Assembly: GCA_050084515.1 (NCBI GenBank) | Contig: CM114271.1 | Location: 48,422,001-48,486,000 of the forward strand | Direction: 5' to 3' | Source of the DNA: Blasia pusilla | Lineage: Eukaryota | DNA length: 64,000 bases | Shown: positions 2,994 through 34,900 of the stretch, one piece after another | Layout: every line of letters begins with the position of its first letter | Numbering within the stretch: the stretch's first letter is position 1 | The notes under the pieces: model-generated | What the model was told of the DNA's origin: nothing | Seen by the model: the letters and a program-made list of their open reading frames with translations, nothing else | The model's database searches: none | Position numbers and translations under genes: made by a program

Positions 2994-3634
2994 TGTCGTG
3001 CGCATACACATCGCTACACAACATACATCGCTGTCACCGAACACACACACAAACACGCACGATCCCATGCTAACTCATGGCATCCAAACAACAAGACAAG
3101 AAGTACCAAATATCTCCAATAAATTGAGATCCAATCTCTCTCTACACAATCTCACACCATAGCTCTCAAGGTGTGCACTCTCTCTCATGTCAAACCAAAC
3201 CCACTCTCCTAATGAAAGGCTTGGGTTACACTCACAAGGCAAGGGACCATAGCTCCGCCGCCTCATGCCAAGAGGTTCAACAAAGAGAGAATGAGCTCTC
3301 AAGCTCTCTCTCCTTGGGATATATACCCCTCCCCTCTCCCAAGCTCTCTCCATGGTAACCTATTCTCCCAAGTCACCTCCTTGGCTCTTGACCTGATGTA
3401 CGAGGTCAAGGGCCACTTACTAAAAATATAAAGTCGATCATATACTCAAAATGGTACTTACCTAAAATAGTAAGTTTCTCAATATGGCTCCAAATGAGCC
3501 AAAACGAAGGGAAAACCTGCTCTCTCAGGTTTCCCGGGGCCTCAGCAAGTCATCCTCGACCTCCTAGGCCTATCCTCCACTACTCTTGAAGATGCTCTAC
3601 TAGATCTCATCGATCTATCCTAAAGGACGTGACA
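2994..3634 (-). mobile_element. Solo terminal unit (X+Y, 641 bp) of the DNMT-Gypsy family B
   Basis: TGTCGTG...CGTGACA termini. Matches 15101-15677 and 58889-59528. Flanks attt/actt are at best an imperfect 4-bp TSD. Confidence 0.9.
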
Positions 3635-5708
3635 ACTTACCCGGACTTGACTCGTCGCTTATCGGAGTGGATACTCATTTTTAATTACCCATGATTGCGC
3701 CGTCCTCCACTTCAGCGACCTCTTCACACATTGAAGGTTGAACAGCTCATCTTCGCTCCCTCCAGTGAGGACCAAGAAACAACCCTTGTCACTCACATAC
3801 GCGTCGGCAAAAGAAAACAACAGCACGATCTGGTCATACGAAAGCGGGACATTCCAGTCTAGGACGGTTTCAGACGGATTGTTGTCCCACAAGCAAAACC
3901 CAGAAGGCGAATCCGCAATGAGGAGGTCGACCGCCACCTCCTCAACCACCCCATGCACCGTCCAGGGGGCGTGCCCATTTCGAAGGAGTTTTCGTCCCAA
4001 CACGGTCAGTTTGTCTATGGCAGGTATCGACTCCTGAGAACTGAAACTCTGCAGCTCATCGACAAGATGAGTCAAGTGAACAAGGACATTTTTCTTGGTG
4101 GTTGTCTCCCTATGCCTGCCCAAGGATGATGGAGTGTATTCCACATCCTTATCTCCTTCCTTAGACGAACCAGGCGCCTCCCGCTTCCGCTTCTCCCGAG
4201 TCTGATGTCGGCTTGTGGGAGTCTCTGTTACCTCAGACTCCATAGGAGTTTTCTTCAATGAGGACCTGGTCCGGCCCTCTTGCCCCACTCGCCCGGACAA
4301 TTCCGCCTCTCACCTTGAGGACTCAGCCTCTTTTCTGGAAGACTCCGCCTCGGAATTCCTCGATCCCCTGGCCTTCCTCAAACCCGTTGTAGATTTGTCT
4401 TTGGCGGTGACGACCTTGCCCACCAACTCCGCTGTCTCAAGGGCTTGCTCCTCCGCATCTCCTTCGGAAAAAATTTCAGGTTGCACGAGGTTCGGAATAT
4501 CCTCCCTACCTGCGACCACTGCATCATACACCGTGCGTAGATTATTTTTCTGTAATATCCTCTGGGTCGTTGAAGTCCAACCTGATTGGACAATTGTTAA
4601 CCTCCCAGTTGGACATGCCCTATCCCATCTCTATGTCGTATGTGGAGAATGCCTCTCCATCAGGCGGAGAAGCCCACAATTTGCAGACTGCCGGTAGGTA
4701 CCTGCATTCTTACAATTGATGAGGTACCTATACTCCATCCGCTGGGCAGCTCTTTGTCGAGATGACTAGGCCGCTTGGTCCTGAAGATCCCGCTTCTTCT
4801 TTGCAAAATCCCATTTTTTTGGCGTCTATTTCCTCATCTTGGTCTGCCTGAGGGAGGATGTGATTCTTGAACATCATCCAGAATCCCGGGGATTTTGTGG
4901 GCTTATCTCTGATGTCATCAAGCCATAGTTCAAAATCTTCTTCAGCCTCTAGGCTTGCTTCCTCTGGAACTGGCTCAATCTTCTTCAGCTCTGCTTGAAG
5001 ATCCATGAGCATGGACTTCCCCAGAAGGCTTAACGCGTCCCATAATGACCATTCCCGTAGCCAATGGGAGATTAGTGGATCTGAAACTCCCAGAGGATGG
5101 TGTGCCGCCCGCTTTTGGGCCTTAGTGCCCTTGAGACTGATTTTCATCAATCGGATTTGCCTAAACTCGGAAATTCTAGATAGCGCAAATGTGTGCACGC
5201 GGTCCAGAGACACTTTCTTGCCGATCCGACCCTGTGGATCTTCGTCTCTCTTCCACTCGCACTTGATTATCGCCTTGAGCTCCTTGTAAAACTCCGGGCT
5301 AAGTTCAGGGTTGAGAACTGCATCTTGCTTGCATTGTACTTTGTAGCTGCAGATAAAGCAGCCTGAATAAACTTTGCACGTTCCGACGCTCATACGTTCT
5401 CCCTTCGCTCCAGTTCCAACGAAGCACTCTTCTTGGCGGCCTGGATCTTGGACCAACATAGGATTGTGACGGCTACATCTTGGGAAATGAAGGTATTTGC
5501 CCAAGTCTTCTTTTTTATTTGAGCTCCCTTTTCCAGCATCTCATTTACCAGACCGTCGCCCAGGAATCCCTTGTACTTTTCCGGGTGCGTCGTAAGCACC
5601 TTCTTCACCCTGTCGCAATCTTGGATCCAATGGTGGGTGATGTTCCCCTCAGATACAAGCCTGCACATCCAAACACAAGATAAGAATACTGTAAGCTATC
5701 GGGTTCCT

Positions 5709-14543: not shown

Positions 14544-15991
14544 CGATGCAAAATGAGGTCTTAGATTTTACTTTCATTTGCCAAAACCTTCACTTTGAGC
14601 TTGAACTCTTTTCAACCTAGGACAAATGATAGATTTTTTTCAGACCTTGGATGGAAAAAGTGTTTTGTTCCACATTTATTATTCCAATGATTTTTCAGTT
14701 TTTAAAATTTTGTGCAAATTGCAACCCGTCGGATTTTGACGGGTTTCCAAAATGTGGAAGAGGAAAAAAAATTGTGTGGGAGTGCCTAAGCACTGAGAAC
14801 AAAAGTGCAAAAATAATCACACAAAAAGTTTCCTCTCTTCAACCCAACGGAAACTCTCTTCAAAAAAAAGTTTCTCTTTGGGTTGAAGGTAGTTTCCTCT
14901 CTCCTCTCTTCCTCTCTTCCTCTCCTCTTACCGGTCCTCAGTTCTTCTTACAAAGCTTCTTGCCGAAGCTAGAATCACTATCGCACTTGGGCCTAGCGAT
15001 CTGCTTACTTTGTTGGGTCATCAGCTTCATCAAGTCCATCATATGGACATAAAGTGTCGAGTCACTTCAGTTTGGAGCCAAAGGCCCTGTAGAAGGATTT
15101 TGTCGTACGCATACACATCGCTACACAACATACATTGTTCTCACCGAACACACACACAAACATGCACGATCCTAAAGTAAGATCCAATCTCTCTCTACAC
15201 CATCTCACACCATAGCTCTCAAAGGTGTGCACTCTCTCTCTTTCATGTCAAACCAAACCCACTCTCCTAATGAGAGGCTTGGGTTACACTCACAAGGCAA
15301 GGGACCATAACTCCAACGCCTCATGCCAAGAGGTTCAACAAAGACAGAATGAGCTCTCAAGCTCTCTCTCTTTGAGGAATACCCCTCCCCTCTCCCAAGC
15401 TCTCTCCATGGTAACCTATTCTCCCAAGTCACCTCCTTGACTCTTGACCTGATGTAGGAGGTCAAGGGCCACTTACCAAAAATAGAAAGTCGATCATATA
15501 CTCAAAATGGTACTTACCTAAAATAGGAAGTTCCTCAATATGGCTCCAAATGAGCCGAAATGAAGGGGAAACCTACCCGTGGCCTCAGCAGGTCATCCTT
15601 AACCTATTGAGCCTGTCCTCCACTACTCACGAAGGCGCTCTACTAGATCTCACCGATTTATCATAAAAGACGTGACAATTGTCGTGCGCATACATATCAC
15701 TACACAACATACATCGCTGTCACCGAACACACACACAAACACACACGATCCCATGCTAACTCAAGGCATCCAAACAACGAGACAAGAAGTACTAAAATAT
15801 CTCCAATCGCCCCCCTACCTGGTGGTTAGGTCCCTCTAACTCCAGATAGTCATCTATCCCTACCTACCATGACATACATCTCTAGGACGCTAAGAGGAGA
15901 AAGGCCGGGTGCTCATGTGGCCCCATCATTAGTCGCCTTCCTGTCATCCATGTCACAAAAAAAGTCAGAATTGAAACCTACCTAGTATCTC

Positions 15992-16145
15992 CTCTATGTA
16001 CATCTGGGACACATCCATTGTCCCCGAGGAACCCTAGTAAGAGGTGGCGTCAGACATGCCATATGCCAACCTCTCGAACATCAATCATAGACTAGCATCG
16101 TGGCCGCACCACAGGCAGAACCACACAACATACAACGCAAGCGTG
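15992..16145 (-). pseudogene. PHD finger at the integrase C-terminus
   Basis: RCMLCGSACGAATMLVYD*CSRGWHMACLTPPLTRVPRGQWMCPRC fits the C4HC3 pattern, with one Cys mutated and a stop. Confidence 0.9.
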
Positions 16146-19060
16146 CAGGAACTACTACTAAGCTTGGATCTACTCTACCATCAATATTAGGAAGGTGACA
16201 TGGCGCACAATTACGCACAAGGTCCTTCCATACCATACCACCGCGTCCCTCCACCAAGAGAACAACAGATGGCAAACCGTCACGCACTCTCAGGATAGTG
16301 CGCCCTACAGTCACATCCAATATTTTCGGTGTCGTCTGCTGCAAGTAGATATAATATCCTTGATGAAACCTCTGGATAGTTGGTCGATAACCACCACCCT
16401 GAATAGTCGCATACCTCAACGTATTTTGATGTTGTGCAATCGCCAAGTTCTCAAACGCCATGGGCATCACTCTCTGAAACAACTTAGCCCTCTGAGAACA
16501 TGCTCGCATCCATATATCTAGGTCATCAAGATCCAGCACCTCACCAGCATCTCGACAAATGGCCACAGGTAAATCTGGCTCTCGGCCATAAAGTAGCAAG
16601 TACGGTGAAAAAGATTCTAAGGATGCCTGCCTGCTGAATCTGTATCCCTTTGCCAACCAGGGCAACTAGAGGTCTCAATCTCCTAGGTGACCTCTCTGCA
16701 AGCCATACTTACGTAAACCCCTCTTCACCGTCTGCACAACTCTCTCCGCTAATCCATCCGTCTCGGGATGATCTTGCGAAGTCGTGTGGTCGTCGATCAG
16801 CGCCTGATCACCCAAGGCTTGGAACTCACCATGAAACTCGGTACCCTCGTCTGTCAACACCTAAGTCGGTGCGCAATAATGACTCACCACTCTGTCAAGG
16901 AAGGCATAAGCTACTCCCTCAATCGCTTTGTCAAGCAATGTAACCAACTCGATCCACTTCCAGAAGTGCTCGACCATCACCAACACATAACGACTATGAC
17001 GCTCCGTCAAAGGCAAAGGTCCTACAAAATCCAAACTCCATCTATACCCTAAGCCCATGATCGGTAATGGATGCAATTGTGGAGTCAGAGCATTGAACGA
17101 TGCTCGAACCCGATCACACACCACGCACCTGGCAACAAACTGTTGAACGTCAGTCTGCATACCTCGCCACAATACTGAATCTGGAGCAAGTTGTACGTCC
17201 GCTTTATCCCAAAGTGACCCAACTCCTCGTGGGAATGTTGCAGTAGTCATGCTCTCTGCAAAGGATGCGGCACTATACATACTCTACCATCCTCCCAAAC
17301 CCTCAAAACATGTGTCTCCTCCCAACGGAACCGTCTGGCCCGCTATAGGATCCGATCCTGCTCTCTAGCACCCACGGTGCTCGCAACGCTGCCAATACAA
17401 AGGTACTCCAAGACTACTCCATCATCATGAATATCTCGGCCACTTGTGGTCTCCTCACTCACCTCAGGATCCAAGGACTCTCCACTAGACCTCGCCATCA
17501 AAGTCTCCACACTGTGGCTCTCCATAGCCAACATGCATATATAGGCTGACGCGTGCCATCCTGGCACTAACTCCTCATCACTTTCTCCATGCCATCGAGC
17601 TCCAGTCACATCTCTCTAACTCAAGCATGGGTTACGACTTAACCCATCTGCATCTTGGTTGAGCGTCCCAGGTCTATGTACCACCTGAAAATCATACTCC
17701 TGCTACAACAGAGCCCATCTCTCTCGAAGTCTCTCTCTCCCTCGCAAGCTTCCCTGTAAGCTTGTCAGACTCCATCAACCACTTCAATGGTTGATGATCA
17801 GTGATGATGGTAAAGGGGTTGCCGAATAAGTAACACCTGAAATGCGCGACAGCCCACACTGCAGCCAAGCACTCACCCTCATACGAGCTGAACTTTGCCT
17901 CTGTAGCGTTGTTCGAGCGGGTAGCATAAGCCACCACGAACTCTCTACCCTAATCATCATGTTGGGTGAGCACTGCTCCAAGCCCCAACATGCTCCAATC
18001 TGTGTGCAACGGGAAAGGACGCCCCCTGATCCGTCTCCTCAAGATGGGCGCGGACGTCAACATGTCCTTGAGCAACTGAAATCCTCGCTCCTGCTCATCC
18101 TCCTAGTGCCACTCGTGATCCACCTTGGTCAGCAAGGTTAGCGGCTTTGCAATCGAACTGAATCCCTTGACGTATCGCCGATAGAAGTTCGCCAATCCAT
18201 GAATGCATGAACACGGCTCACATCCGTAGGAGGTGGAATGCATGAGATAGCCTCTACCTTCGTCTACTGAACACCAAGGCCCCCTAGGTATATCGTATGA
18301 CCCAAGTACTCAATCTAGTCGTAGAAGAACTTGCACTTGCCTGGATGTAGCTTCAGCCCATTCAATTACAATCGTCGAAACATCTCCTCTAGATGTCGCT
18401 CATGCTCGTCAACCGTGGCGCTAAAGACTACAATGTCATCAATATAACACCTAGCAAAATCAAGACCAGCCAATATCCTATCCATGACCCTCTAAAACTC
18501 AGTCGGAGCGTTCTTTAACCCAAATGGTAAGAACCGCCACTAGTACAAACAATCCTTCCCGTGAGGATCGATGCTCCAAAATGCCGTCTTTTTCCTGTCC
18601 TCCAATCTAATAGGCCGGTGATGGTATCTGGCTCGCAAATCCAATGAACTAAAGATCTTTGCGTGACCAATCGCATCAAAGATCTCCTCAGGGGTGGGCA
18701 TGGCATACCTATTGGACTTCGTCTGCCGATTGATAAGTCGGTAATCCCCACACATCCGCCTATCTATACAGTTTCCATGCACATCCTTCGTGGCAAGCAT
18801 GACAATGGCAGATGCATACTCCCCATGCGACATCTGCACTAGTCTTGCTCCGACCAAGTCCTAGCTCCTACTCTGAATCAGAGCCCTCTCCATATCACTA
18901 TACCTCTAGGGTCGTCGGAAGATCGGTGTATCACTCGACAACTCAATGCGGATCCTCGGTCCCTTCAACGTACCCAAATCCTTCATGTTGAACGCAAAGC
19001 AGCTCCTATATCTCTTGAGGAATTGATGTATCCGGCGCCGCTCTCCTCCTATCAACTTAG
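16146..19060 (-). pseudogene. RT - RNase H - integrase (Gypsy order), disrupted
   Basis: RRMCGDYR...KIFSSLDLR...YIDD; VAYATRSNN...YEGECLAAVWAV...TDHQPL; HGHFG/CxxC zinc-binding region; WSLDFVGPLP; LTDEGTEF; HPETDGLAER. Confidence 0.95.
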
Positions 19061-19399
19061 GGCCCATATTTGGCTCCCAAGTCTCCATCGTGACTACAGT
19101 AGGACTCTCCGGCGCGGGTATCGGTGGTTGCTATGGTGCAACCCCGTCTCGAACAACAGCACTCGGCCGCTCTCTTGTAGCCAACTGCAAACTCTGATCT
19201 CCTCCACATGCAGTGCCCAAAACCATGCTCGATATTGTGGCTTTCATCTCCTAGCGTACCTGCAAAACATCCCAAGAAGTCCAAGGGTGTCTCTCCCAAT
19301 CTCCCCTGGTGTGTAGGTCTCCTCGATTCTCGCCCCTAGCCACTACCTCCACCGTCTTGATAGGCATGGGGCTCACCAACGCAATCGTTGTGATCTGTC

Positions 19400-20350
19400 G
19401 CGATCTCATACGACGTTGCTCAGCCACTCCCAAGTTGAGGATCCATGTCAAGCAATTTAGGTCCATCGCTTGACCCAAGACATGGCGTCGTGATCCCTGT
19501 GACACTAACGGTACTGCCGTCACTCCAGTGGGAAATCCCATCGCTCGCTCTCTCGGCGTTGGGCTCCACCAACCGCTGAACCTGGTCATCCCAAACCAAG
19601 CCAAGACCGGCCTCCTTGTATGCATAGGAAGCAGGAAAACTCACAAACGTGGGAAAGCCTGCCCGCGGCCTGCCTACCCTCTTGACCACAGTCAATAGTG
19701 GTTGATCATTGTGCCTCACTGCCTGTGAGCGACAACCTGGATACAGAATGGAATCCACTAACAAATGGGAGGGGCGCTCCACTCTTGCATACGCCCTCCG
19801 TAACACCGCATGGGGCACCAAGTTGGTCCACCATAGACGCGGGCGATGGGCTCTAGAACCTACACTCGTAGTATCCAAGAACACTATTGGGCCGATCCAG
19901 GCACGGACTTGATGAGCACTCATCACCACCTATGACCTGGAGTCTCCTAAGATCGGCACATTCTCCAAAATGTAGGCTGGAGAACAAGACTGGTGCTCCT
20001 ACAACTGCCGTAAGACCCTCAACATCTCCCAAAACAACCTGGATCGAGTATCAGCCAACCCGATGCCTCGTCTAGCATTCGATTGGCCCTGACATGGCCA
20101 ACCGGAAATGACCAAATCAATGGTCCCTACCCGCTCTAAGTCTCTGGTACCCCTGTACCATGGACGTAGACAATAAGTCGGGAAAACATAGGCATAATTA
20201 TGCCACATGTCGTAGTGAGACGCGCCTCGCAACATCATCACTCTCCACATACATGTACTCTTGCACTCGCACTCCTGCCTACAAAACAGCAGCTAACCCG
20301 ATGCTAATCCCTCCAAAGAGATCTAACATTCAAATATCCTCCTTCGGGGT
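19400..20350 (-). pseudogene. C5 cytosine DNA methyltransferase domain (DNMT3-like), copy 1
   Basis: LDLFGGISIG (motif I), IDLVISGWPCQGQS (IV), YILENV (VI), GSRAHRPRLWWTN (VIII), ERAMGFPTGVT (IX), RRHVLGQAMD (X). Confidence 0.92.
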
Positions 20351-20497
20351 ACACCACACAATGGGTGTGGTATCCAAGGGTGTCATCAAAGCACTCTCTG
20401 CTACCTCGGGTTCCTCAGACCCATCACCCTCCGATGCAAACGCCTCGCTCCACGCGATCTGCATGTGCTCATCTGCCAATCGTCAAAGCTCCTCAAC

Positions 20498-21150
20498 CGC
20501 TCATGCTCCTCAACCGTGGTGCTAAAGACTACGATGTTATCAATATAACACCTAGCAAAATCCAGACCAGCCAAGATCTTATCCATGACCCTCTGAAACT
20601 CAGCCGGGGCATTCTTTAACCAAAATGTTAAGAAACGTCACTAGTACAAACAATCCTTCCCGTGAGGATCGATGCCCCAAAATGCCGTCTTCCGCTTGTC
20701 CTCCAATCTGATGGGCAACTAATGGTATGTGGCTCGCAAATCCAATGAACTGAAAACCTTTGCATGACCAATCACATCAAAGATCTTCTCAAGGGTGGGC
20801 ATCGCATACCTATCGGACTTTGTCTGCCAATTGATAGGTTGGTAATCCCCATACATTTGCCTATCCGTCCAGTTGGCATGCACATCTTTCTTGGCGGGCA
20901 TGACAGTGGCAGGTGCATACTCCCCATGCGACATCTCCACTAGTCCTGCTCCAACCAAGTCCTGGCTCCTACTCCAAATCAGATCCCTCTCCATATCACT
21001 ATACCTATAGGATCATCGGAAGATTGGCGTATCACTCGACAACTCAATGCGGATCCTCGGTCCCTTTAGCGTACCTAAATCCTCCATGCTAAACGCAAAG
21101 CAACTCCTTTAACTCTTGAGGAACTGATGTATTCGGCGCCACTCTCCTCT
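20498..21150 (-). pseudogene. Duplicated N-terminal half of RT
   Basis: Parallels 18410-19060 (EMSHGEYA...KVFSSLDLR...RCYIDNIVVFS) and ends at the duplication junction, about 20497. Confidence 0.9.
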
Positions 21151-21499
21151 TGTCAACTTAGGGCCCATATCTAGCTCCCAAGTCTCCATCGTGACTACGG
21201 TAGAACTCTCCGGTGCGGATATCGATGGCTGCTATGATGCAACCCTGTCTCGAACAACAACACTCGACTGCTCTCTTGCAGCCAACTGCAAACTCTGATC
21301 TCCTCCACATGCAGTGCCCGGAACCACGCTCGATGTTGTGGCTATCATCTCCTGGTGTACCTGCAAAACATCCCAAGAAGTCCAAGGGTGTCTCTCTCGA
21401 TCTCCTCGGGTCTCGCCCCCAACTAGTGCCTCCACCATCTCGATAGGCATGGGGCTCACCAACGCAACTGTTGTGATCTCTCGCGATCTCATCCAACGG

Positions 21500-23750
21500 T
21501 GCTCAACCACTCCCAAGCTGAAGATCCATGTCAAGCAGTTCACGTCCATTGCCTGACCCAAGACATGGCGTCATGGTGCCTCTGATACTGACGGTACTGC
21601 CGTCACTCCTATGGGAAATCCATCGCCCGCTCTCTCTCGTCGGCGTTGGGCTCCATCAATCTCTGAACCTGATCATCCCAAACCAAGCAAGGACAAGCCT
21701 CCTTGTATGCATAGGAAGCAGGAAAACTCACAAACGTGGGAAAGCCTGCCCGCGGCCTGCCTACCCTGTTGACCACAGTCAACGGTGGTTGGTCATCGTG
21801 CCTCACTGCTTGTGAGCGACAACCAGGATCCAGAATGGAATCCACTAACAAATGGGAGGGGCGCTCCACTCTTGCATACGCCCTCCGTAACACCGCATGG
21901 GACACCAAGTTGGTCCACCATAGATGCGGGCGATGGCCTCTAGAACCTACACTTGCCGCATCCAAGAACACTGTTGGGCTGATCCAGGCACGCACTTGAT
22001 GAGCACTCGTCACCACCTGTGACTTGGAGTCTCCTAAGATTGGCACATTCTCCAGAATGTAGGCTGGAGAACGAGACTGGTGCTCCTGCAACTCCCGTAA
22101 GACCCTTAACATCTCCCAAAACAACCTGGACTGAGTGTCAGCCAACCCGCTGCCGCGTCCAGCACTCGATTGGCCCTGACATGGCCAACCGGAAATGACC
22201 AAATCAATGGTGCGTAACCGGTCTAAGTCATGCACCCCCAGCAACGAAATATCCCTCGGTGTCGTGTCGAGAATCTTTCTTCGAGCAAGGGCGGGCCTTC
22301 TAGCTGCGGTAGATGTGGTCGATGCAAGATGAACTCTCTAATAAGTTCTCCTTTTTCAATACAAAATTATGATGTACACTCTCCATTCTCTCACGACAGG
22401 TATCACAAATGGAAGTGCCGAGGCGATCACTTCTTCGTAACATCGGATCCCGAAATTCCTAACTATAAAATCCCTATAAACTATTTTACGTTTGTACACG
22501 AGGAAGATAGCACAACTAGTGTTAAACCCTACTTGACCAGGCCTATTGACATCCATGGATCACTATATAAGGACATACAAAGTACAATCCCATGTCCTTC
22601 CATATGTGACGATAGGAAGAATCACCGGAGTTGGAGATTGCATGACTGGTTCATGAACGCCTCCCAAAGTGATAAACTAAATAGCGAGTGAACCAAAGGT
22701 GCCTATCTACAAAGAGTACCTTGACATGGTAAGGATTGAGGAAAGGAAAGTCGCAGCACGGCTCGTGCTCCATCCCTATCCATGCTTGATGACATTCTCT
22801 ACTCTCCTCAAGAATGGGTTTTGGCGGAGTTATTCTCCCAAGAGGGGTAATCCACTCATTGGGAAAGTAACAAGCCAAAACATCCGCTATTTTAGTATGG
22901 CTAAACTCCTCTCGGTGACAAACCTCTCATCCCCCCACACACACACACCACACTCTAGAAACCTCTCGAAGAATAGACCATGATCAAGTTACTCTCCCAA
23001 GAGGGGTGATCCACTCTTATTGGAAGAGCAAGCAATCCCAAAGCCATACACTCAAGAGAGACACGAGAGACTCAAGATGTGGAATACAAGGTGATGAACC
23101 CTTGAAGGTCCCTCCTCTTTATATACTCACAAGGGATCCACAAGAGTACGAAATAGAGCTTATCTTATCTTGTGCCACATGGCTTCCTCTCAAGGCTTAG
23201 CCAATCACATTTTGACACAAGTAGATTTCCTCTTATCTCTTCCAAAATATCCTCTTTTACCCACATGATATTTTCCAAATTACCCCAACTAACCTAGCCA
23301 CCAACCAAGACTACTTTTGCTTTTCATTAAAGCAACTACTTTACTTTTATAAAGTCATCTTTTATTTATTACCTCCTTTTCCTAAAGTTAGGCCCGCATT
23401 AAAGAGGCACCATAAAGAGGTTTAAACATAAGAATCTCCTTTTTCTAAGCCAATTTACTTAATACTAATGAAACTCTATCTAACACTTAATGACGAAGGA
23501 GTTTACACACTGGTTGATTTTACTATACGACATCGGTAGGGAACTCTGGTAGCCCTGTACTGCACACATAGACAATAAGTCGGGAAAACGTAGGCGTTAT
23601 TGTGCCACATGTTGTAGTGAGATGTGCCTTGCAACATCATCACTCTCCACATATAGGTACTGCTGCACTTGCACTTCTGCCTACAAAACATCAACTTACC
23701 CGGTGCTAATCCCTCCAAAGAGATGTAACACTCGAATACCCTCCTCCGGG
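21500..23750 (-). pseudogene. C5 cytosine DNA methyltransferase domain (DNMT3-like), copy 2, split by a solo LTR
   Basis: Motif I region at about 23700-23740. IDLVISGWPCQGQSSAG...PAYILENVP...HRPHLWWTN...ERERAMDFP in ORF 21609-22244. Confidence 0.92.
22260..23532 (-). mobile_element. Solo LTR, family A, inserted in the DNMT domain
   Basis: Reverse complement of 1162-2430, with TG...CA ends and 4-bp TSD tcgg. The empty site is visible in the sister copy at about 63695-63722. Confidence 0.93.
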
Positions 23751-23943
23751 GTACACCACACAATGGGTGTGGTATCCAAGGGATTCTCTCTTTGTAAAGT
23801 AAGATCCAATCTCTCTCTACAACATCTCACACCATAGCTCTCAAAGATGTGCACTCTCTCTCATATCAAACCAAACCCACTCTCCTAATGGGTTACACTC
23901 ACAAGGCAAGGGACCATAGCTCTTCCGCCTCATGCCAAGAGGT

Positions 23944-24700
23944 TCAAGGGTGTTTCGTAGCACTCCATGCTACATCGGGTTCCTCAGACCCGTCATGCTC
24001 CGGTGCAAATGCCTCGCTCCACGGGGTTTGCACGTGCTCATCTACCAATCGTCGAAGCTCCTCAGTCGAGCCCCACAGCGGCACCTCTCCTCCACGGAAT
24101 GATGCGGCTACCATAACACTCCTCTCCATAGAAATGTCAAGAACGGGAGTATCCTTTGCATGGACATGTCTCTCAATCAAATCACTGGGCCAAGTGATGG
24201 CACTACTAAATGCTGCTAAGGTCGCCATCTCTCCTGGCCATTGCTCGATCATTGCACTTGTGAATCGAACGGGTAATGAGCTAAGGCGCCCATCACCTGA
24301 CTGCCATCCTAGTCGGTAGGATGCTGACTCCTCCCAGTAATCCACTGAAAACCCCATCGAGTATAACATTGCTCCATCAACCAAGATGTCGTAGGACTCT
24401 GCATCAGTCACCATCGCCTTGGCTCGCACCACGGACTCATCTATAGGATGTCCCCGGAAAATCCTCACCACGTCCTCTTGTCGGGTGATATACTGTGTGG
24501 TACTCACTCCACCCAAGGATGTCTGTATCCGGAATGGACAACGCTCCATATTGGCTCTCGTCAAGCCAAATCCTCTAAATGACGCTTTTCCCAACATCAG
24601 GGGTTGCGCTCCTGAATCCAACAAGACGCGTTGTGGACTAAAAGCTCTACCTCCGAGACTTACCAACTAGAAGACTGCTCCTTGGTTATCTAGCAACATA
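23944..24700 (-). pseudogene. Aspartic protease and linker of family B
   Basis: RVLLDSGAQPLMLG...YDILVDGAML. Confidence 0.88.
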
Positions 24701-24994
24701 ACACCAGGAGAAGCCATGGCACGCTCTATCGCGAGTCTAGCGGGCATCTCCGCCATCCTAGTAGCCGCAACTTGCCATGAATCTGACGTGGACGACCCGA
24801 GCATCCGCTCTAAGGGCAAGTCTATCACCTCTGAATGTGATGCAGGAACTCCAACTCCACTCTCATACTGTAGCGGCCAGCCGCAAAGCCTCGTTGGGCG
24901 TACCCCCCAACGTCATAACATCGGAAGCAGAAAATAAAGGAGCGCGGTACACAATGGTGGCCGCCCCCAACAACGTGCTCGACACATGCCCCTC

Positions 24995-26806
24995 CTAAGC
25001 ATCAACAATAGGAGTCGTCACACTCGCTTCTCCCATCGCCCTCCGTGCGTGCACACCAACTCTCCAGGAACTCTGATCAGGACCCATCGATGGGGTCCTC
25101 ATTGCCTCGGACAACGTGAAAGACTGAGGAAGCGTAGTCTGTTTCCTGGCTTCCCCTCGCTGTGAATCTAACTCTGCGGTTGCCTCCATCTGGGCAACTC
25201 CGCACATCCAACCAGGATCCTCCATATCTCTGATTGCTCCATATGATGTCGATGCCACGGATCTGACATCGGGTAATCTCAATGCCATAGCGGAAATCTG
25301 CTCCTATAGCTGATGTATCTGAGCACCCATCCTAGCCTCACGCCCGACATCTCCCTCGACGCGTCTAGGTGGTGGGACTCTACCTCCTCCACAGGCAACT
25401 CCACCACCCTGTCAGGAAACTCCAGCTCCTTGTCCCCCAACGGGACCACTTGGTGCATAATCTCTAGGCCCACCTGGACTCGCTACTCGCTCTGGTGCCC
25501 TCTCTGGCCCTCGGTCCGGAGGTAACTCAGGATGTAAAATGAAACACTTGGCGCGTGTATGACCATACCTCTGACAATAGTCACACTGATCACCTCCTGG
25601 TGCAGCACCATCTCCTCCTCCATGCTGAGGCACACGTCCATGACCCTGATGAGTGCAATCGCGCTGATGATGGGCTCTACCATATGACCAAGAAGTAATA
25701 GTAGGTGGCTGCTGCTGAGCCGCATATGAAGGCGCAGGTCTATGTGGCACAGCCTCTCGGTATCCTCCGTGAGCTTGTGCTGCCATAGTCAACCTATCTT
25801 GGAGTCCACGTTGTTGTATAGGTAGTGTAGGCAATCGTGACAACTCTCGCCCTGAACCCATGGTGGCTATGCTCTCCTCCGCCATGTTGCGCTCAATGTT
25901 CTCGGCGGTCCTAAAAACATCTCTCAACATAGGGAGGTGTTTATAAGAAGCACCCCCTCCCGCACCGCAGGGTCCGATCCAGCATCGCGTACCATGACTG
26001 GATAGCCTAAGCCTCTGTCACCCCTGAGTGACGTTGATCAACCGGCGCAAGCGAGTGTAAACCTTACGCAAACTCTCACCCGGGCGCCTCTGGAAGTCGT
26101 GGATGCTCCGCAACTTCTCCGTCCGTACCCCTTGGTAGCTCGCCCTCAACTCAACAAAGAACTCAACCACGGGGTTGAACCTGGGACGAACCCGACTAGA
26201 TGGTGCAACTGCTCCAGTGCGAGTGACCCCTCCTAAAACATCACTAGTGGAAGAGGAAGTAGCCTCTCCTGACTCCTCCTCCTCATCTGGGAACGGCTCC
26301 GTCCATTACACATAGTGTGGATTGTAGTAGAGTCGGCATGCCTCAATCTCCTGGGCATATCTATGAGAGAACTCATGGTAATCGTCCATGGATGCCCCTT
26401 CTAAATGCTAGAACATACCGTTCCATGCTATAAACGGGTTGAACTCTCTAGAGTTCCTAGCCGGCTGTGAGTCACACCAATTCCTACACTCTGCAATGAA
26501 GTCATGTAGCTCTATGGTGCCTACAGCACCAGAAAACCCACGCGGTCCTCTACCCCGGTCATCCATCTCGTACGCCCAACTGGTAGGACCACTCAATGTG
26601 TACGGTGGATCACTAACACCCTCCTCTACACGCTCCCCCTCATCTGAAGATGAGATAGAAGGAGATCGAGGTGGTCTCTCACGTGGAGACCCTCGAAACC
26701 TCGCACCACTCCGGGTAAACCCTCTAGAGCTATTCTCAGGTCCACTCCCTCGCCTCTCAAAATCCTGAAAGGACGCCGTGATGGTCCTTGTGCCCCTCTC
26801 ACACAA
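24995..26806 (-). pseudogene. Gag of family B with zinc knuckle
   Basis: GFSGAVGTIELHDFIAECRNWCD...; CDYCQRYGHTRAKC (CX2CX3GHX4C) at about 25550-25590. Lies upstream of PR. Confidence 0.85.
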
Positions 26807-27689
26807 TCACTCCCAACCTCGCGAGTAATCCCTCAATCACTCATCCCAAACATGCGGCACTCGATCTACACTCTCCCTCCCCGAGACCTATAACGTGCGG
26901 CAACAAGCGGCGTGGTGCGGCAAATCGACCAGGCTATCATCTCATCAACAACCTACCCTCAACTTCGGACATCCCACATAGGTCTATGTCCCCTAAATCA
27001 CATACATAAATGATGCTCTCAGCATCTACGACCCAATATCCTCAAATAAACTACCCAAATCCCAGGATCCCTGACACGTGTAGGGTAAAGGACCAGAATA
27101 GGTAACCTGAACACATGTCGATGTCGCTCCTCAGCAATTGTAAATCTCGACCCCAACTCGGTCGTGGAGACAACTCCTCCAATCAGCAAGTCATACTCCT
27201 CTTGTACTGACGTTGCTCAAAACTCCTCGATAGATAGTGCGGTTCCAGCGGAACGGTGCGGCGTTGCAGGAGGCACAGAACGGCTACGAACGGCACGGCC
27301 CTCGATGGTGGGATGCGGCACTTGGCAGCATATCCTCCTCAATCAACAATAAATCCACACTCTGCTCCACAATGACGGTGCGGCTCCACGATCGAGATGG
27401 TGCGGTGCGGCCACGAGCAGCAATCGGCGGCACGTTGCGGCTACGGGCGTCACGGCATGGTACTCGATCATTGTCGAGCGGCTACCAATCACAACATAGC
27501 AGCATGAAATCAAAACTCAAACACCATAACTGGAGGTCATCTGCCATCACAGGTTGATGACGAAACTACGATGACAATGGCGGCCAAAACAAAATACGTG
27601 GTGGCGACGCAAGTCAGAGAATCAACAAACGTCGTGGAAGACCCTCCACTCCGTAACGGCGGCAATGGCAACCAAAGGGTGGACAACGG

Positions 27690-27830
27690 ACGATGGACCG
27701 TTGACGGTGACAGTTGACCGTTGATGGTGATGGCCGACCGGTGACTATGACCATTGACAGTGACGGTTGATCGTCAATGGTGATAGTTGAACATCGATGG
27801 CGGACTAATGATGGTGACTATGACGGCGAC
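27690..27830. repeat. Degenerate (TGACGG/TGACCG)-like hexamer repeat in the 5' leader
   Basis: gaccgttgacggtgacagttgaccgttgatggtgatggccgaccggtgactatgaccattgacagtgacggttga. Confidence 0.7.
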
Positions 27831-30434
27831 GGCCGCCGCCAGTGTGGCGGCTGGTTTAGGGTTTGAACAATTTAACCCTAAAAATTGTTTAGCAATGGCA
27901 GTTTTGCAAGATTGACCATAACTTTTTCCTTGCAACTCTAAATTGCATTCTGTTTGTTGCATAGTGTGCACAGCTTCACGATCTACAATAGCATTAAAAA
28001 ATATTTAGAATCGGACATTCCAGTAAAAATTGACGGGGAATGTCTTAAAGCCCAATGTCTCTTTCTTCTACACAAAATTTGGCAGCGCTTCCGCGATGAT
28101 TTCTCCCAATGAAAATGTAAAACCTACAAAAATACAAATCAGCAAGCTACATAGGGCTCTCGAGAGCACCGGCATGGGGCAACCCGTCCCAATAATCAAT
28201 CCCTATCAAAAATTGGGCAGCGCTTTCGCGCGCCACTCTTCCACACGAAAAATCGGCAAATGCAAAGAACAATCAAAGCAGCCCTTTCTCCAGTGAGCAC
28301 TCCCATGAGCCGTTGAATGGGGAACATGGTCCCTAACGTGCAAAAACAGCGAGTGACCTGCAAGCTCCCCCATGAAGCTCTCTCACTCTCTCATTCTCTC
28401 ATTCTCTCTTTGTAAAGTAAGATCCAATCTCTCTCTACACCATCTCATACCATAGCTCTCAAAGGTGTGCACTCTCTCTCTCATGTAAAACCAAACCCAC
28501 TCTCCTAATGAGAGGCTTGGGTTACACTCACAAGGCAAGGGACCAAAGCTCCGCCGCCTCATGCCAAGAGGTTCAAAGCAAAGAGAGAATGAGTTCTCAA
28601 GCTCTCTCTCCTTGAGGTATACCCCTCCCCTCTCCCAAGTTCTCTCCATGGTAACCTATTCTCCCAAGTCACCTCCTTGGCTCTTGACCTGATGTAGGAG
28701 GTCAAGGGTCACTTACCAAAAATAGAAAGTTGATCATATACTCAAAATGGTACTTACCTAAAATAGTAAGTTCCTCAATATGGCTCCAAATGAGCCGAAA
28801 CGAAGGGGAAACCTGCTCTCTCAGGTTTCCCGGGGCCTCAGCAGGTCATCCTCAACCTATTGAGCCTGTCTTCTACTACTCATGAAGGCGCTCTACTAGA
28901 TCTCACCGATCTATCCTAAAAGACGTGACAAATATCTAAGACATCCTAATGACTAGAGCTCGGCCTCTCGAGAGTTGCCGTCTCTTCCTCTGGCTCTTGG
29001 TCCGTCATTAGTTCATCTCTTGGATTTTTTTGCTTGACTGTGCGCTTCCTTCGTTCTTTGCACTCGATTGCCATCTTCAAGCGCTCGGTCACATCTTAGT
29101 AGCTGATAAGTAGAGATCTATTGCACCAACGGCATAGAGAGCCAGCGGACTGTCTTGAGTGTTACTTTGTTTTGAGGTGTTGGATGAGGTTGAGGATAGG
29201 TCCATTTTTTTAGGAATGTCATTTCTGGTGACTTTCCTATTTTGGTCTTTGACAACCGGGTGACTTGTTGAGCAGGTCATCCGCCCCTGATAACCTATAC
29301 GCGCAAGTTACTTGGAGGATTTCTAGGGTCAGAGTCTTTTGGCTCTTCCCAAAGCCATATTTCTCATGTTGGGTCGTTGGAGCACCTCTCTTGCTCATGT
29401 GTGAGGTAGGAACTAGAGTGCTACACAACTAGCGTGCGGATTCCTTCATAGTAGAGGGTGGACGAGGCTCAATATGTTGATGTAGATTCAAGAATGGAGT
29501 TTTAGGCTAGGTGTGTCGGTATTACTTTTCTTTTTATATGAGAAAGATGCGAGGGAGTAGGGGGACTCGTTGTTTGCAAGTAGGCAAGGGATTTGCCTTG
29601 GTTAGGAGCCCCTAGAGATGTAGGTTGGCATTTTTCTTTGGTAGTATTTTTGTTTGGAAGGCCGTGCAAGGAAGCGTTGTCTATTTTTTGTATTTTTTTT
29701 GGTGCCGGTTGACGGGGGATAGAAGTTGGGTGTGGCGGCAAACGGTTACGAATGAGTAACGGGAAAGGTTGGGAAACAGAGAGAGAATTTCATGTCTTGG
29801 GGCAGTTGTTTAGTAAATTGGCTAGGACTAGGTTACAAGAACCTTACTCTAATCACAAGCGGGAGAGTCTCAAAGGGGAGCGTGTAGCTTCAAAGGCGGG
29901 GCAAAGAGAAGGTGCAGTTGAACAAGGTCTTAGCTTGCGCACCACAATGAGACGGATGGAAGGAGCCACGCCATGGAACAGTACATGGCTGGGAGCTGGA
30001 GAACACAACCCCGCCGTGTGTAGAGAGGAAGGAGTCACAAGCGAGGTGCATCCATAGGGACGTGTACCGGAGGCTGAGTAAATGAAGGCACTAAGGCTCC
30101 AGAGGGAGCTATGCCTCTGGATGAGCACAACTACAATCGGGGTACAGATGTGGGTGTATATGGGGTCGGAGTAGCAGAGCGGTAGGGCAAAAGAGGCACT
30201 GCAAGTCGAAAGCAAGAACAGGAAGGGTCACGGACGGAAAGAGAGCTACCACGAGCCAATTGGGAAGGAGTTGCAGATTTGGAGGTAGCCACGTGGAGAC
30301 AAAGTTGCGTCTAGAGGGAAGCATGTCCGAGTACGTGCCAGGATAGATAGGGGTTTATGGATAGGAGTTTGGAGTGAGGAAGGGAAATTGGGAGCAGTCG
30401 GGCTTGTGGGACGGCAAATGTAGCCGTTGGCTAC

Positions 30435-31974: not shown

Positions 31975-34900
31975 TGTTGTGTCATTGAGGGTATTCGGTA
32001 CCGGGTAGTAGTTGGTGCTAGGTGGGGATGGTGATGAGTGTAGTCTCCATGCATATATAGCATGCTTGTGGATATATAACGGTTGCCGAGGAGGGGTCGC
32101 ATGTATGACCGGAGAGAGGGAGTGAGTAGTTTAGGTGAGCTAGTAGGGAGGCTTAGGGTGAGCTAAGTGGGAGACTCTTGGTGAGTCTGAGTGATTGAAC
32201 GTGTGAGGCAAGATTGTCATTATGGTTTACTTCTAGGGTTTGGAAGATCGGAGTAATGCAAGCAGTAGTAGTGGTGTGACATGGAGTGGCGTGAGGTATC
32301 AAGGGGTTTCTAGTGAGGAACCATCCCGAAACCTATTCGTGGCTGGATGGTCATCACTAGACAACGGATCTAGTGACAATATTGCATACAGAGATAGTGT
32401 CACGTGGGGAGAGATAGACGATATGGGCCATCGGGGCATGCGTCATTTCTTTAGTGCAGTAGGCACCATAGATCTAGATGACTTCATCCTGGAGTTCGAC
32501 ACTTGGTACGACTTCCAAGAAATACGGACCCCTATACGGTTCTACCCTTTTATGGCGTGGAAGGGTTTGCTCCAGCATCTAGAGGGTCCTCTGATGGATG
32601 ATTACATTGAGTTCAGATCTTTACAATCATTAGAGATCGATGCCTAGAGGATGTATTGGGCTCCACGGTATGTATCCACTAGGGGCCGAAAGGCATATGA
32701 TGAGATAGTGAAGACAGAGAGACCTACACCATCAGCCCAAGGATAGTAGTGAGGATGGTGAGGTGGTAGAGACCTGTGGTGATAGAGGGCCACCTAGTTT
32801 CAGTCCTAAATTGAAGTTCTTCCAACATTTGGGGAGGAGCTACCAGGGCGTGCCGACGGACCAGCTGAAGAGTCTACAGGATTTTCAATGGAGATCGGAT
32901 GACAATCCGAGAGAGGCGTTCACGCACATGCAATGACTCTTCATTGCCACATATGGGGTGACTAAAGCACAGCAAGCATAGTATTAGTACGGGGTGCTGG
33001 ACCATGAGCTAAGGAGGAGAGTCTAGCATGCAATGTTGCTTCACACGTAGAAGCCCACAATGAAGGTGGTCTTGAAGTTGTTTGAGCGGGTAGAGCTCAA
33101 CATGAGTGAGGAGCATGTGGTGATCATGGGATTTTCATGAGATTCAATGGATTCACGAGTAGTAGTAACCTCACAAGTGTCTCTGTATGCACCAATACCA
33201 AGGGAGCGAGCCGGCGAGCCAAGAGAGCACAACGGGTATCGTGAGTCGATGAGGCAATGATCCGCATCAACATATGTTATATTACCCAGCAAGGACAAGG
33301 GTTGGCTTGTTGGATGCGTGAGGGACTGCCCACATAGAGGTAGAGGGGCCGAAGGCGCCTCTGATTACTCGATCGAGAGCCACCTCGGATGGCCCCAACA
33401 TAGTTGCAGTATGATCATTGTGATCGATATGGTCACACTAGGGATATGTGTTTTGATCTTTGCCTAGAGGTACGTCCAAAAATAGGCAAAGGATCAAGGG
33501 GCGAGAGAGCTAGTGGAGATCGAGTAGTTGACAATCATGGTTGTAGAGTTCCACCACCAGTCGAGGGAGATGAAGGACATGTATCGGATGGAGTGTTCCT
33601 CACTCGCATCGATTAGTTGGAGTAGAGGATTGTTGCCATGATGATGATGATGTAGGTAGGGACAAGAACAGAGCCGACAGTAGCTAGTGTGGCTCCAACC
33701 TCCACATCGTATCGGGATACCGGGGAGGATTATACGGGATTGAGGTTAATGTGTAGTACGGCTCAGGTAGAGGCTGTTGCGGTGGTCACTCGGGGTGCTA
33801 CAAGATGACTGAGCCATTGAGAGGTGGGGTGGAGATCAATCCACAAGAGGGGACCAATGGGCAGCAGGCCTAGGTTCCTTTGTTGTTCACGTTGTCAGGG
33901 GCAATTCACACACCATTGATGATTCCTCGATGACCAATGGTGCCCATAGGTGAGGCAGGTATGTCAACGTCATGAGGAGTTGGAGAGATGATTCCTATGT
34001 TGGCTTGTGTGGAGCTAGTATCGACTTCATTATTGGAGGTGGCCATTAGGGTGAGCCAGGCTCTATTTTTTTCCGCCATGGAGTTGGCGACAATGGGAGT
34101 TGGACCAGCGAAGGTGTTATGGCTCGCTGCTATGTTGTGTGAGCATGGAGAGGTGACTGCTTCTCATTTAGAGATAGTTGTTGAGGAGGTGGTGGACATG
34201 CCCTCAGAGCATGTGCTCGAGAGGTCCCCCATGTCACTTCGTCATGGCATGCTACAGCAACAAAGTTGATAGATATGCCAACTAGACCAGCGATAGAGCG
34301 AGCCATGATCACACTAGGTGTAGTGTTCTTGGATAACCAAGCTAGAGTGTTTTGCTTGGTTAGTCTCAGAGGTATGGTATCCACTGCGCATCCTACTTGA
34401 TTCGGGAGCGCAACCCTTGATGTTAAGGAAGGTGACGTGTTTGGCATTGGAGTTACCAAAAGGCGACATTGAACGTTGTTCCTTTCAGATATAGACCTCT
34501 ATTGGGGGCCTATCACCCACACAATACATGACTTGACAAGAGTTAATGGTTAGACTCCAACTAGAGCATGAGAAGGATATTGCGATGGTAAGCATTCGGA
34601 AATTACAACACCGGCAGAGTCGTATGATGTGTTGGTAGGGAGTACGGTATTGTATCCCCTTGGTTTCATTCTGAATTTTTGTGAGGAGAGGATTTCTTCT
34701 TGGCTAGGATGGTGATCAAGTGATGGACGGGTGAGCCATCTACTGATGTAGTTTGGAGGGGGTAGTAGTGGTCGACCACGCGAGGATACGGTGACCACGT
34801 TGGCAACATTCACAAGTGATGTTAGCCTATCAGGAGAGTTGTTGGAGAGAAGCACACATATGGAGGAAATTCTTGTAGCCGATCGTCCCACAAAGAGACA

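Follow-up and report, generated by a model that had tools for sequence, protein, structure and literature searches.

We analysed a window of 64,000 nucleotides from Blasia pusilla (assembly GCA_050084515.1, contig CM114271.1, positions 48,422,001 to 48,486,000 of the forward strand), whose region 15101-28930 holds a decayed and recombinant member of a bryophyte-type retrotransposon family of the Ty3/Gypsy order, one that is transcribed and present in very high copy number. The element lies on the minus strand and its direct repeats are split: a repeat X1 is followed by the coding region, a purine tract, a repeat Y1, a spacer of two nucleotides, X2 and Y2. Relatives of the element are built in the same way, and we conclude firmly that the split layout is a family trait of a Gypsy-order element with a DDE-type integrase. 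The best explanation for the findings as a whole, which we hold with a little more confidence than doubt, is that the transcript primes its own reverse transcription, that the long terminal repeat (LTR) has the order Y-nn-X, and that the element integrates from end-joined complementary DNA (cDNA) cut internally.

The repeats and adjoining sites of the main copy, of a second copy and of a solitary repeat pair in the window are as follows.

28413 to 28930, minus strand: X1, the 5′ terminal repeat (repeat A1 in the relatives), 518 bp, beginning TGTCACG
28398 to 28412, minus strand: primer-binding site (PBS) of the self-priming type, CAAAGAGAGAATGAG, 15 nt directly after X1 and a perfect reverse complement of 28593-28579 in X1
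15808 to 15820, minus strand: polypurine tract (PPT), AGGTAGGGGGGCG, directly 5′ of Y1 and kept in all 16 relatives listed (12 distinct insertions)
15680 to 15807, minus strand: Y1 (repeat B1), 128 bp, ending ACGACA, by position the 5′ part of the unique 3′ region (U3) of the LTR
15678 to 15679, minus strand: the 2-nt spacer, AT, separating the terminal CA of Y1 from the initial TG of X2, at the centre of an imperfect palindrome
15173 to 15677, minus strand: X2 (repeat A2), 505 bp, 92% identical to X1
15101 to 15172, minus strand: Y2 (repeat B2), 72 bp, with ACGACA at the element boundary
58889 to 64000, minus strand: second copy, 3′ part only, with the same Y-nn-X-Y 3′ end and continuing beyond the window
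58889 to 59018, minus strand: Y2 of the second copy, full length, 130 bp
59019 to 59528, minus strand: X of the second copy
59529 to 59530, minus strand: spacer of the second copy, AC
59531 to 59658, minus strand: Y1 of the second copy
59659 to 59670, minus strand: purine tract of the second copy
2994 to 3634, minus strand: solo XY (X 3120-3634, Y 2994-3119)

An earlier interpretation drawn from the letters of the window (here called the sequence-only reading) had proposed the X...Y-nn-X-Y layout for 15101-28930, and both ends were found where it had placed them. It had also assigned 128 bp to Y at both 3′ positions, which holds for Y1 but not for the terminal Y2, whose first ~56 bp are deleted in the main copy. 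The recurrence of the Y-NN-X-Y end at 58889-59658 and the solo XY at 2994-3634 were both borne out. The X copies of the window are 86-92% identical to each other and the Y copies 85-95%, and the 4-nt flanks of the solo XY (AAGT and AAAT) differ by one mismatch. The internal sequence of the main copy after X1 amounts to about 12.6 kb. In every copy the PBS adjoins X and the PPT adjoins Y, not X2. We found no Y-like or purine-tract-context sequence upstream of X1, where local alignment scores were 17-22 as compared with a mean of ~18 and a maximum of 24-28 for shuffled sequences. A degenerate Y at this position was considered and dropped, its alignment scores lying within the shuffle range. No PBS of the TGG type was found after X1, which is directly followed by non-Y sequence. 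These results uphold the earlier description of the 5′ end as consisting of X only, with neither Y nor a TGG-type PBS.

The genes of the element are arranged in the order gag-like, Dnmt3-like methyltransferase, reverse transcriptase (RT), RNase H, DDE integrase and PHD finger, and every copy in the window is degenerate. Between the PBS and the methyltransferase the main copy contains two regions.

26552 to 28397, minus strand: long untranslated leader, reaching from the PBS to where similarity to liverwort polyproteins begins (the tblastn match of P0007 starts at 26551)
24001 to 26551, minus strand: gag-like N-terminal part of the polyprotein in the 5′ donor copy, degenerate, matching P0007 residues 9-846 at 37-49% identity (tblastn)

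No Pfam family was detected in the open reading frames (ORFs) of the leader. The methyltransferase gene ahead of RT-RNase H-integrase had gone unnoticed in the sequence-only reading. DNA_methylase (PF00145) was detected in two window ORFs, with E values of 8.5e-12 (ORF 21612-22337) and 3.9e-7, and by tblastn this part lies upstream of RT and downstream of a gag-like region of ~850 residues. The top protein matches are from liverworts (Calypogeia and Marchantia; ~60% identity), several of which are fusions with RT and RNase H. P0005, the Marchantia homologue, gave matches to DNMT3A/3B/3C chains (E 2e-6); a phmmer search of the window's own degenerate methyltransferase ORF against the PDB gave no match. 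In the second copy, Pfam domains were found for RVT_1 (4e-27), RT_RNaseH (1.4e-32), Integrase_H2C2 (1.9e-15) and rve (34.6 bits, cut-off 32.6), and tblastn also confirmed the order RT-RNase H-integrase. Together with the 4-bp target duplications of the relatives, described below, the rve, RVT_1 and RT_RNaseH matches sustain the identification of a Gypsy-type element with a DDE integrase, which had been made before. No tyrosine recombinase (Phage_integrase or other family) was found in 38 element ORFs, 37 of them distinct, on both strands, although a weak domain could go unseen in degenerate ORFs. A PHD finger, and not a chromodomain, comes after the integrase; this finger is weak in the window (59866-60462, minus strand, 23.2 bits) and clear in the relative P0023 (residues 1605-1650, 35.7 bits), and PF00628 is also listed for many other relatives. 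In P0023, the methyltransferase lies between RNase H and the integrase.

The relatives comprise 80 loci on metagenome contigs, obtained in a scan with the window RNase H-integrase ORF at 54-76% protein identity. Their repeats are named A (equivalent to X, ~340 bp) and B (equivalent to Y, ~115 bp), and duplicate loci were merged before counting. The methyltransferase part is present in 45 of the 80 loci, which are all the loci that match P0007; loci with no match to A or B yielded no further repeat structures. Complete A-int-B-A-B units were found in L014, L034, L056 and L058. Among the 40 distinct 3′ ends, 11 read B-A-B and one more does so with B1 partly deleted; three read B-A and are then cut off or run into other sequence, 18 have B alone, with 400 nt or more available downstream, four are without such room, and three have another partial B. 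The spacer between ...ACGACA and TGTCATG... is exactly 2 nt in all 12 B-A-B ends (AC in five, GC in five and AT in two). At the other end of the element, B was found beside A, before or after it, in none of the 17 distinct 5′ ends.

Eleven units could be assessed at both ends for target duplications, of which seven have a perfect 4-bp duplication, three a duplication with one mismatch and one an ambiguous one; such duplications were found for the A-int-B-A-B as well as for the A-int-B forms. The duplication encloses the whole A...B-A-B unit in L014, L034 and L058, and with one mismatch in L056, which shows DDE-type insertion of the whole unit. Within an element, A1 and A2 are 86-92% identical and B1 and B2 91-96%. 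In 10 of 12 elements A2 and B2 abut directly; the other two joints have one or two extra bases, which match the last bases of the PPT, and in one case 17 filler nt besides. The integrated unit therefore starts with TG, ends with CA, reads A-PBS-genes-PPT-B-nn-A-B and has the 4-bp target duplication outside. Set against the features that define the Gypsy order, the pol order with rve, the TG...CA termini with a short target duplication, the PBS after the 5′ repeat and the PPT before the 3′ repeat are all present, but two identical LTRs at the ends are not: in both the window and the relatives, A alone stands at the 5′ end and B-nn-A-B at the 3′ end. Conversely, of the features of the DIRS order (PAT/Ngaro type), the split direct repeats A1-B1-A2-B2 are present and the tyrosine recombinase is absent.

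In Tf1, the transcript begins with bases to which the PBS behind the 5′ repeat is complementary. The partner of the window PBS, at 28593-28579, begins 28 nt after the T (28621) of a TATA-like box in X1. A complement of 15 nt was reached in none of 20000 shuffles, even a 12-nt match occurs at only 5 of 9068 positions across the window, and the minimum-energy fold pairs the PBS with its partner (z -3.24). Throughout the family and its relatives, the partner in A sits 26-29 nt downstream of the TATA box. In L034, AACATAGTTCTTTGAG pairs with CTCAAAGAACTATGTT over 16-17 nt; in L028, where two compensatory double changes are found, 16 of 17 pairs form; and in 11 of the 17 5′ ends no other stretch of A pairs with the PBS as well as the homologous 17-mer. 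Moreover, the window and the metagenome families differ at several paired positions, and full pairing is kept in both. The complementarity between PBS and partner, together with its covariation in the relatives, suggests that the family is likely to use Tf1-type, tRNA-independent self-priming. A tRNA-independent route had been put forward in the sequence-only reading, and the covarying PBS supports it.

Two presumed fossils of reverse transcription fit the self-priming scheme. One is an insertion in the main region, and the other is in the relative L051.

23783 to 23947, minus strand: inserted X-tail fragment, 165 bp, within the methyltransferase region and reading frame of one copy

This fragment spans from about nt 13 past the PBS partner to the end of X and includes the first 12 nt of the PBS, so that X meets the PBS a second time in the window, at 23795/23794. 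It is flanked by CCTTG microhomology and is missing from this site in two other copies; it looks like a minus-strand strong-stop cDNA captured via template switching. In L051 (3242-3878), the sequence after B-A and the PBS repeats the upstream half of A in inverted orientation. The resulting fold-back, at 3361-3878, appears as if a plus strand ending in a copy of the PBS had folded onto its own partner and been extended.

Sequence data under the same species label, consisting of contigs from two DNA runs and reads from two RNA runs, were compared with the window at a likeness of at least 85%. The family reaches a very high summed depth in the DNA contigs, and its transcription is mainly in the element sense (e.g., 134 as opposed to 12.7 first mates in one bin). 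RNA reads over a Y-GT-X joint numbered 28 and 51. DNA contigs also cross from X to Y, with 85 loose ends at 15807 in X1 in addition to joints 15807→28413; no RNA read was found on X→Y among the joints listed, and there is a weak hint that transcripts stop before Y2. At the loose ends at 15807 and 15843, the most highly expressed relatives in the host have the same purine tract, followed by a B of the type found in the metagenome family (GTTGTGGTACAC...); the host therefore has at least two subfamilies, and the better-expressed one is not that of the window. Joints that go back from 28931 to 15101 were considered as evidence for circles and rejected; they come from internal Y-nn-X joints in other copies that were assigned to the other X and Y copies of the reference.

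How could such an element replicate? An LTR made by RT begins directly after the PPT and ends directly before the PBS, and in this family it is therefore B-nn-A. It follows that the integrase sites lie inside the LTR, abutted as the imperfect palindrome ...ACGACA-nn-TGTCAYG.... At A2|B2, the last base before the PBS is joined to the first base after the PPT, which makes this an end-to-end joint of U5, the unique 5′ region of the LTR, with U3; the integrated unit would accordingly be a permutation of the cDNA. We propose that the ends of the cDNA would be joined head to tail, in a 2-LTR circle, a circle being a possibility already raised in the sequence-only reading, or through an end-to-end jump of RT, and that one staggered integrase cut at the CA-nn-TG of the upstream LTR would then produce both processed CA-3′OH ends, with 2-nt 5′ overhangs. 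The cut molecule would insert as A...B-A-B, its overhanging ends being a normal substrate for strand transfer. If a one-LTR circle were cut, or a linear cDNA at both sites, the product would be A-genes-B, a form that was also found, with target duplications. A benefit of the arrangement, which is speculative, may be that GT-rich B follows A only at the 3′ end, so that polyadenylation would occur preferentially there rather than in the 5′ copy. For the combination of end-joining with an internal cut, the best account that the anatomy offers, we find our confidence and our doubt to be nearly balanced. We are more tentative about the broader proposal that the integrase ends have moved from the tips of the LTR to the internal CA-nn-TG and that head-to-tail cDNA has become the obligatory substrate for replication-competent insertions; this is possible, but it could well be wrong.

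Several observations weigh against the route through end-joined cDNA. A symmetrical circle model predicts the mirror form A-B-A-genes-B in equal numbers, yet none of the 17 5′ ends has it, and we see no good reason for the asymmetry. The 18 of 40 3′ ends with B only could be dead-on-arrival products, or equally the outcome of recombination between B1 and B2, or repeats collapsed in short-read metagenome assemblies. Ten of the 12 A2|B2 joints are clean, whereas end-joining should give more ragged ones. In a tree of 29 rows, the B-A-B and B-only forms are fully intermixed (12 changes, as compared with a mean of 10 after shuffling); since the B-only ends do not cluster, the tree cannot separate direct insertion from later loss. 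No target duplication is found at the outer flanks of the main copy (TATT and AAAT), a lack that we attribute to its being a chimera of two copies, and no pile-up of read starts was seen in X among the 12 listed of 20 rows. One pair of loci, L001 and L002, is 99.4% identical over 2.7 kb through B1 and the spacer and then wholly different, with one of the two continuing into A-B; the cause is a rearranged allele or else a chimeric assembly at the repeat.

The cleanness of 10 of the 12 A2|B2 joints would suit a templated jump better than the ligation of ragged ends. Such a jump would involve no closed circle: RT would pass from the end of U5 to the start of U3 on the same or a second cDNA, and integrase would cut the linear product at two successive CA-nn-TG sites. 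The fold-back fossil of L051 also speaks for this possibility, as it shows that aberrant extensions of plus-strand 3′ ends occur in the family. However, a jump leaves the absence of the mirror form from the 17 5′ ends equally unaccounted for, and two joints carry PPT-derived extra bases and filler, both of which have been described for circle junctions. On this evidence we regard the jump as unlikely. Another templated route, modelled on PAT/Ngaro elements, would start from a transcript without the outer portions of A1 and B2, which is copied into single-stranded cDNA, the ends of which are completed and bridged on the internal B1-A2 before insertion. The arrangement A1-B1-A2-B2 is formally the same as in PAT, Toc, Ngaro and Viper, as these are described in passages of PMC4157794, and the repeat structure of KnitGypsy-Dnmt3 has been equated with that of a DIRS retrotransposon in the figure legend discussed below (PMC5890265). 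Nevertheless, none of the scanned ORFs has a tyrosine recombinase and an rve integrase is present, the 4-bp target duplications indicate DDE integration, and the PBS and PPT hold canonical LTR-type positions around B-nn-A, for which the ordinary two-jump scheme suffices. We consider this route more improbable still.

There are two further readings to which we attach almost no weight. XY could be an ordinary LTR, in which case the 5′ LTR would have lost its Y and a stray Y would have been duplicated before the 3′ LTR; the solo XY at 2994-3634, with its TG...CA ends, does resemble a solo LTR. But B is found in none of the 17 5′ ends while B-nn-A-B is found in 12 distinct 3′ ends, and in all copies X borders directly on the PBS and Y on the PPT, a rule to which the second X→PBS joint at 23795/23794 also conforms. 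Just as improbable is that XY is a small separate element that inserts beside the Y end of an X-genes-Y element, although X-genes-Y units with no terminal X-Y exist (the 18 B-only 3′ ends) and a free-standing XY is present in the window. Here, the 4-bp duplication flanking the whole unit in L014, L034 and L058, and with one mismatch in L056, argues for one insertion and not two. In addition, the spacer is always 2 nt and is unlike the first two duplication bases that a second insertion would require, and the divergences of A1/A2 and B1/B2 are similar, as expected from one event. The sequence-only reading had itself named a 5′ deletion and a separate XY element as the outcomes that would speak against it, and had suggested tabulating end structures and target duplications; neither outcome emerged from the tabulation in the relatives, whose ends and duplications refute both.

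Of the systems that resemble this family, KnitGypsy-Dnmt3 of Klebsormidium nitens is described in de Mendoza et al. (2018; PMC5890265), where the legend of Fig. 4c gives DIRS-like repeats together with a Gypsy domain set. According to the same text, the pol of this Gypsy-order LTR element includes a Dnmt3-type methyltransferase (PMC5890265), as it does in the family studied here. The sequence-only reading had taken split repeats to be typical of tyrosine-recombinase elements and not of DDE-integrase elements, and had overlooked this precedent. As the layout is in print for the K. nitens element, it is not new for the broad group; our element is a further member of a known, barely studied kind, to which a replication scheme is now added. 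The main-text parts of the K. nitens account give no PBS, spacer, target duplication or replication model (PMC5890265). The window RNase H-integrase ORF is 40-47% identical to 'retrotransposon proteins' of K. nitens and Closterium, the K. nitens records not being established as KnitGypsy-Dnmt3, and the host lineage is different, the best matches of the window being from liverworts (Calypogeia, at 69%, and Marchantia). Our literature search for liverwort DNMT-Gypsy elements or for split repeats in Gypsy returned only PMC5890265 and one preprint of 2026, with the mention 'streptophytes (Gypsy-DNMT3)'.

PAT, Toc, Ngaro and Viper have split direct repeats A1-B1-A2-B2 and a tyrosine recombinase, and in the passages of PMC4157794 that deal with them the internal B1-A2 pair is likewise downstream of the enzymes. 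The window family differs from them in its rve DDE integrase, with no recombinase domain found, in its TG...CA ends and in its 4-bp duplications. With regard to priming, self-priming is predicted for the bryophyte Tcn1 lineage in part of the text of Neumann et al. (2019; PMC6317226). Our family is like Tf1/sushi and plant Tcn1 in having a PBS after the 5′ repeat that is complementary to the presumed start of the transcript, and no tRNA-type PBS; this likeness is one of priming anatomy. Unlike our family, those elements have ordinary identical LTRs at both ends, and the window family has a C-terminal PHD finger and no chromodomain. As for the joint itself, insertion sequences of the IS3/IS30 type form circle junctions. 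In these, as in retroviral 2-LTR circles and in the family studied here, abutted CA...TG ends make up a short palindrome that a DDE enzyme can cut into both processed ends. The integrases of foamy virus (PFV; in passages of PMC1180852) and of HIV-1 (in passages of PMC1905944) cut the palindromic LTR-LTR junction. The retroviral junction, however, is confined to the circle and separates CA from TG by 4 nt, whereas in the window family the junction is in every LTR, has 2 nt and is carried in the integrated copy and in the RNA.

Split direct repeats are taken as diagnostic of retroelements with a tyrosine recombinase, and here they occur family-wide with a DDE integrase and 4-bp duplications, in a family that is abundant and transcribed in bryophyte-type genomes. 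The anatomy turns a remark in a figure legend of 2018 into a concrete, testable replication scheme, which touches on the old question of whether LTR-LTR circle junctions serve as integration substrates. If the scheme is true, the family would be a eukaryotic retroelement counterpart of the circle-junction transposition of IS3/IS30, and the origin of split direct repeats without a tyrosine recombinase would be explained. Head-to-tail cDNA, normally a dead end, would then be obligatory, and the integrated copy would be a circular permutation of the product of reverse transcription. There are also consequences for annotation: LTR-finding software that assumes two identical terminal repeats will mis-annotate such elements, and annotators may mistake the methyltransferase genes of the element for host DNMT3 genes.

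The sequence-only reading had treated 15101-28930 as one element. This stands for the repeat layout, but the region is a chimera of two copies, joined at about 20496, with a nested insertion; the join is evident from the repetition of 18397-20142 at 20498-22229 with 88% identity. The parts are the following.

20498 to 22259, minus strand: methyltransferase-to-RT segment of the 5′ donor copy, the duplicate of 18397-20142 (88% identity)
16000 to 20495, minus strand: 3′ donor copy, with methyltransferase (~19552-20476), RT (18198-19094), RNase H (17301-18195) and integrase (16000-17226), and with many stops and frameshifts
22257 to 23533, no strand given: nested unrelated repeat, 96% identical to 1161-2433, in inverted orientation

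The unrelated repeat (1-2433 and the nested copy 22257-23533; 96-99% identity) has an internal inverted duplication of its own, 1-315 against 1203-1516, at 97%. The nested copy is among the most highly covered parts of the window in the RNA runs (bin 23009-23485).

Elsewhere in the window, 32432-34877 (plus strand) is a piece of a second, more distant element, which is similar only to the gag-like N-terminal 800 residues of liverwort polyproteins (30-61% identity); within the extent of the match, neither a methyltransferase nor RT follows. Finally, the 3′ flanks of the solo XY (2983-2993) and of the main copy (15090-15100) match at 9 of the first 11 positions (AAATCCT, followed by two transitions) and are wholly different thereafter. 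This shared flank could be due to chance, to a target preference or to an old duplication; the flank of the second copy differs.

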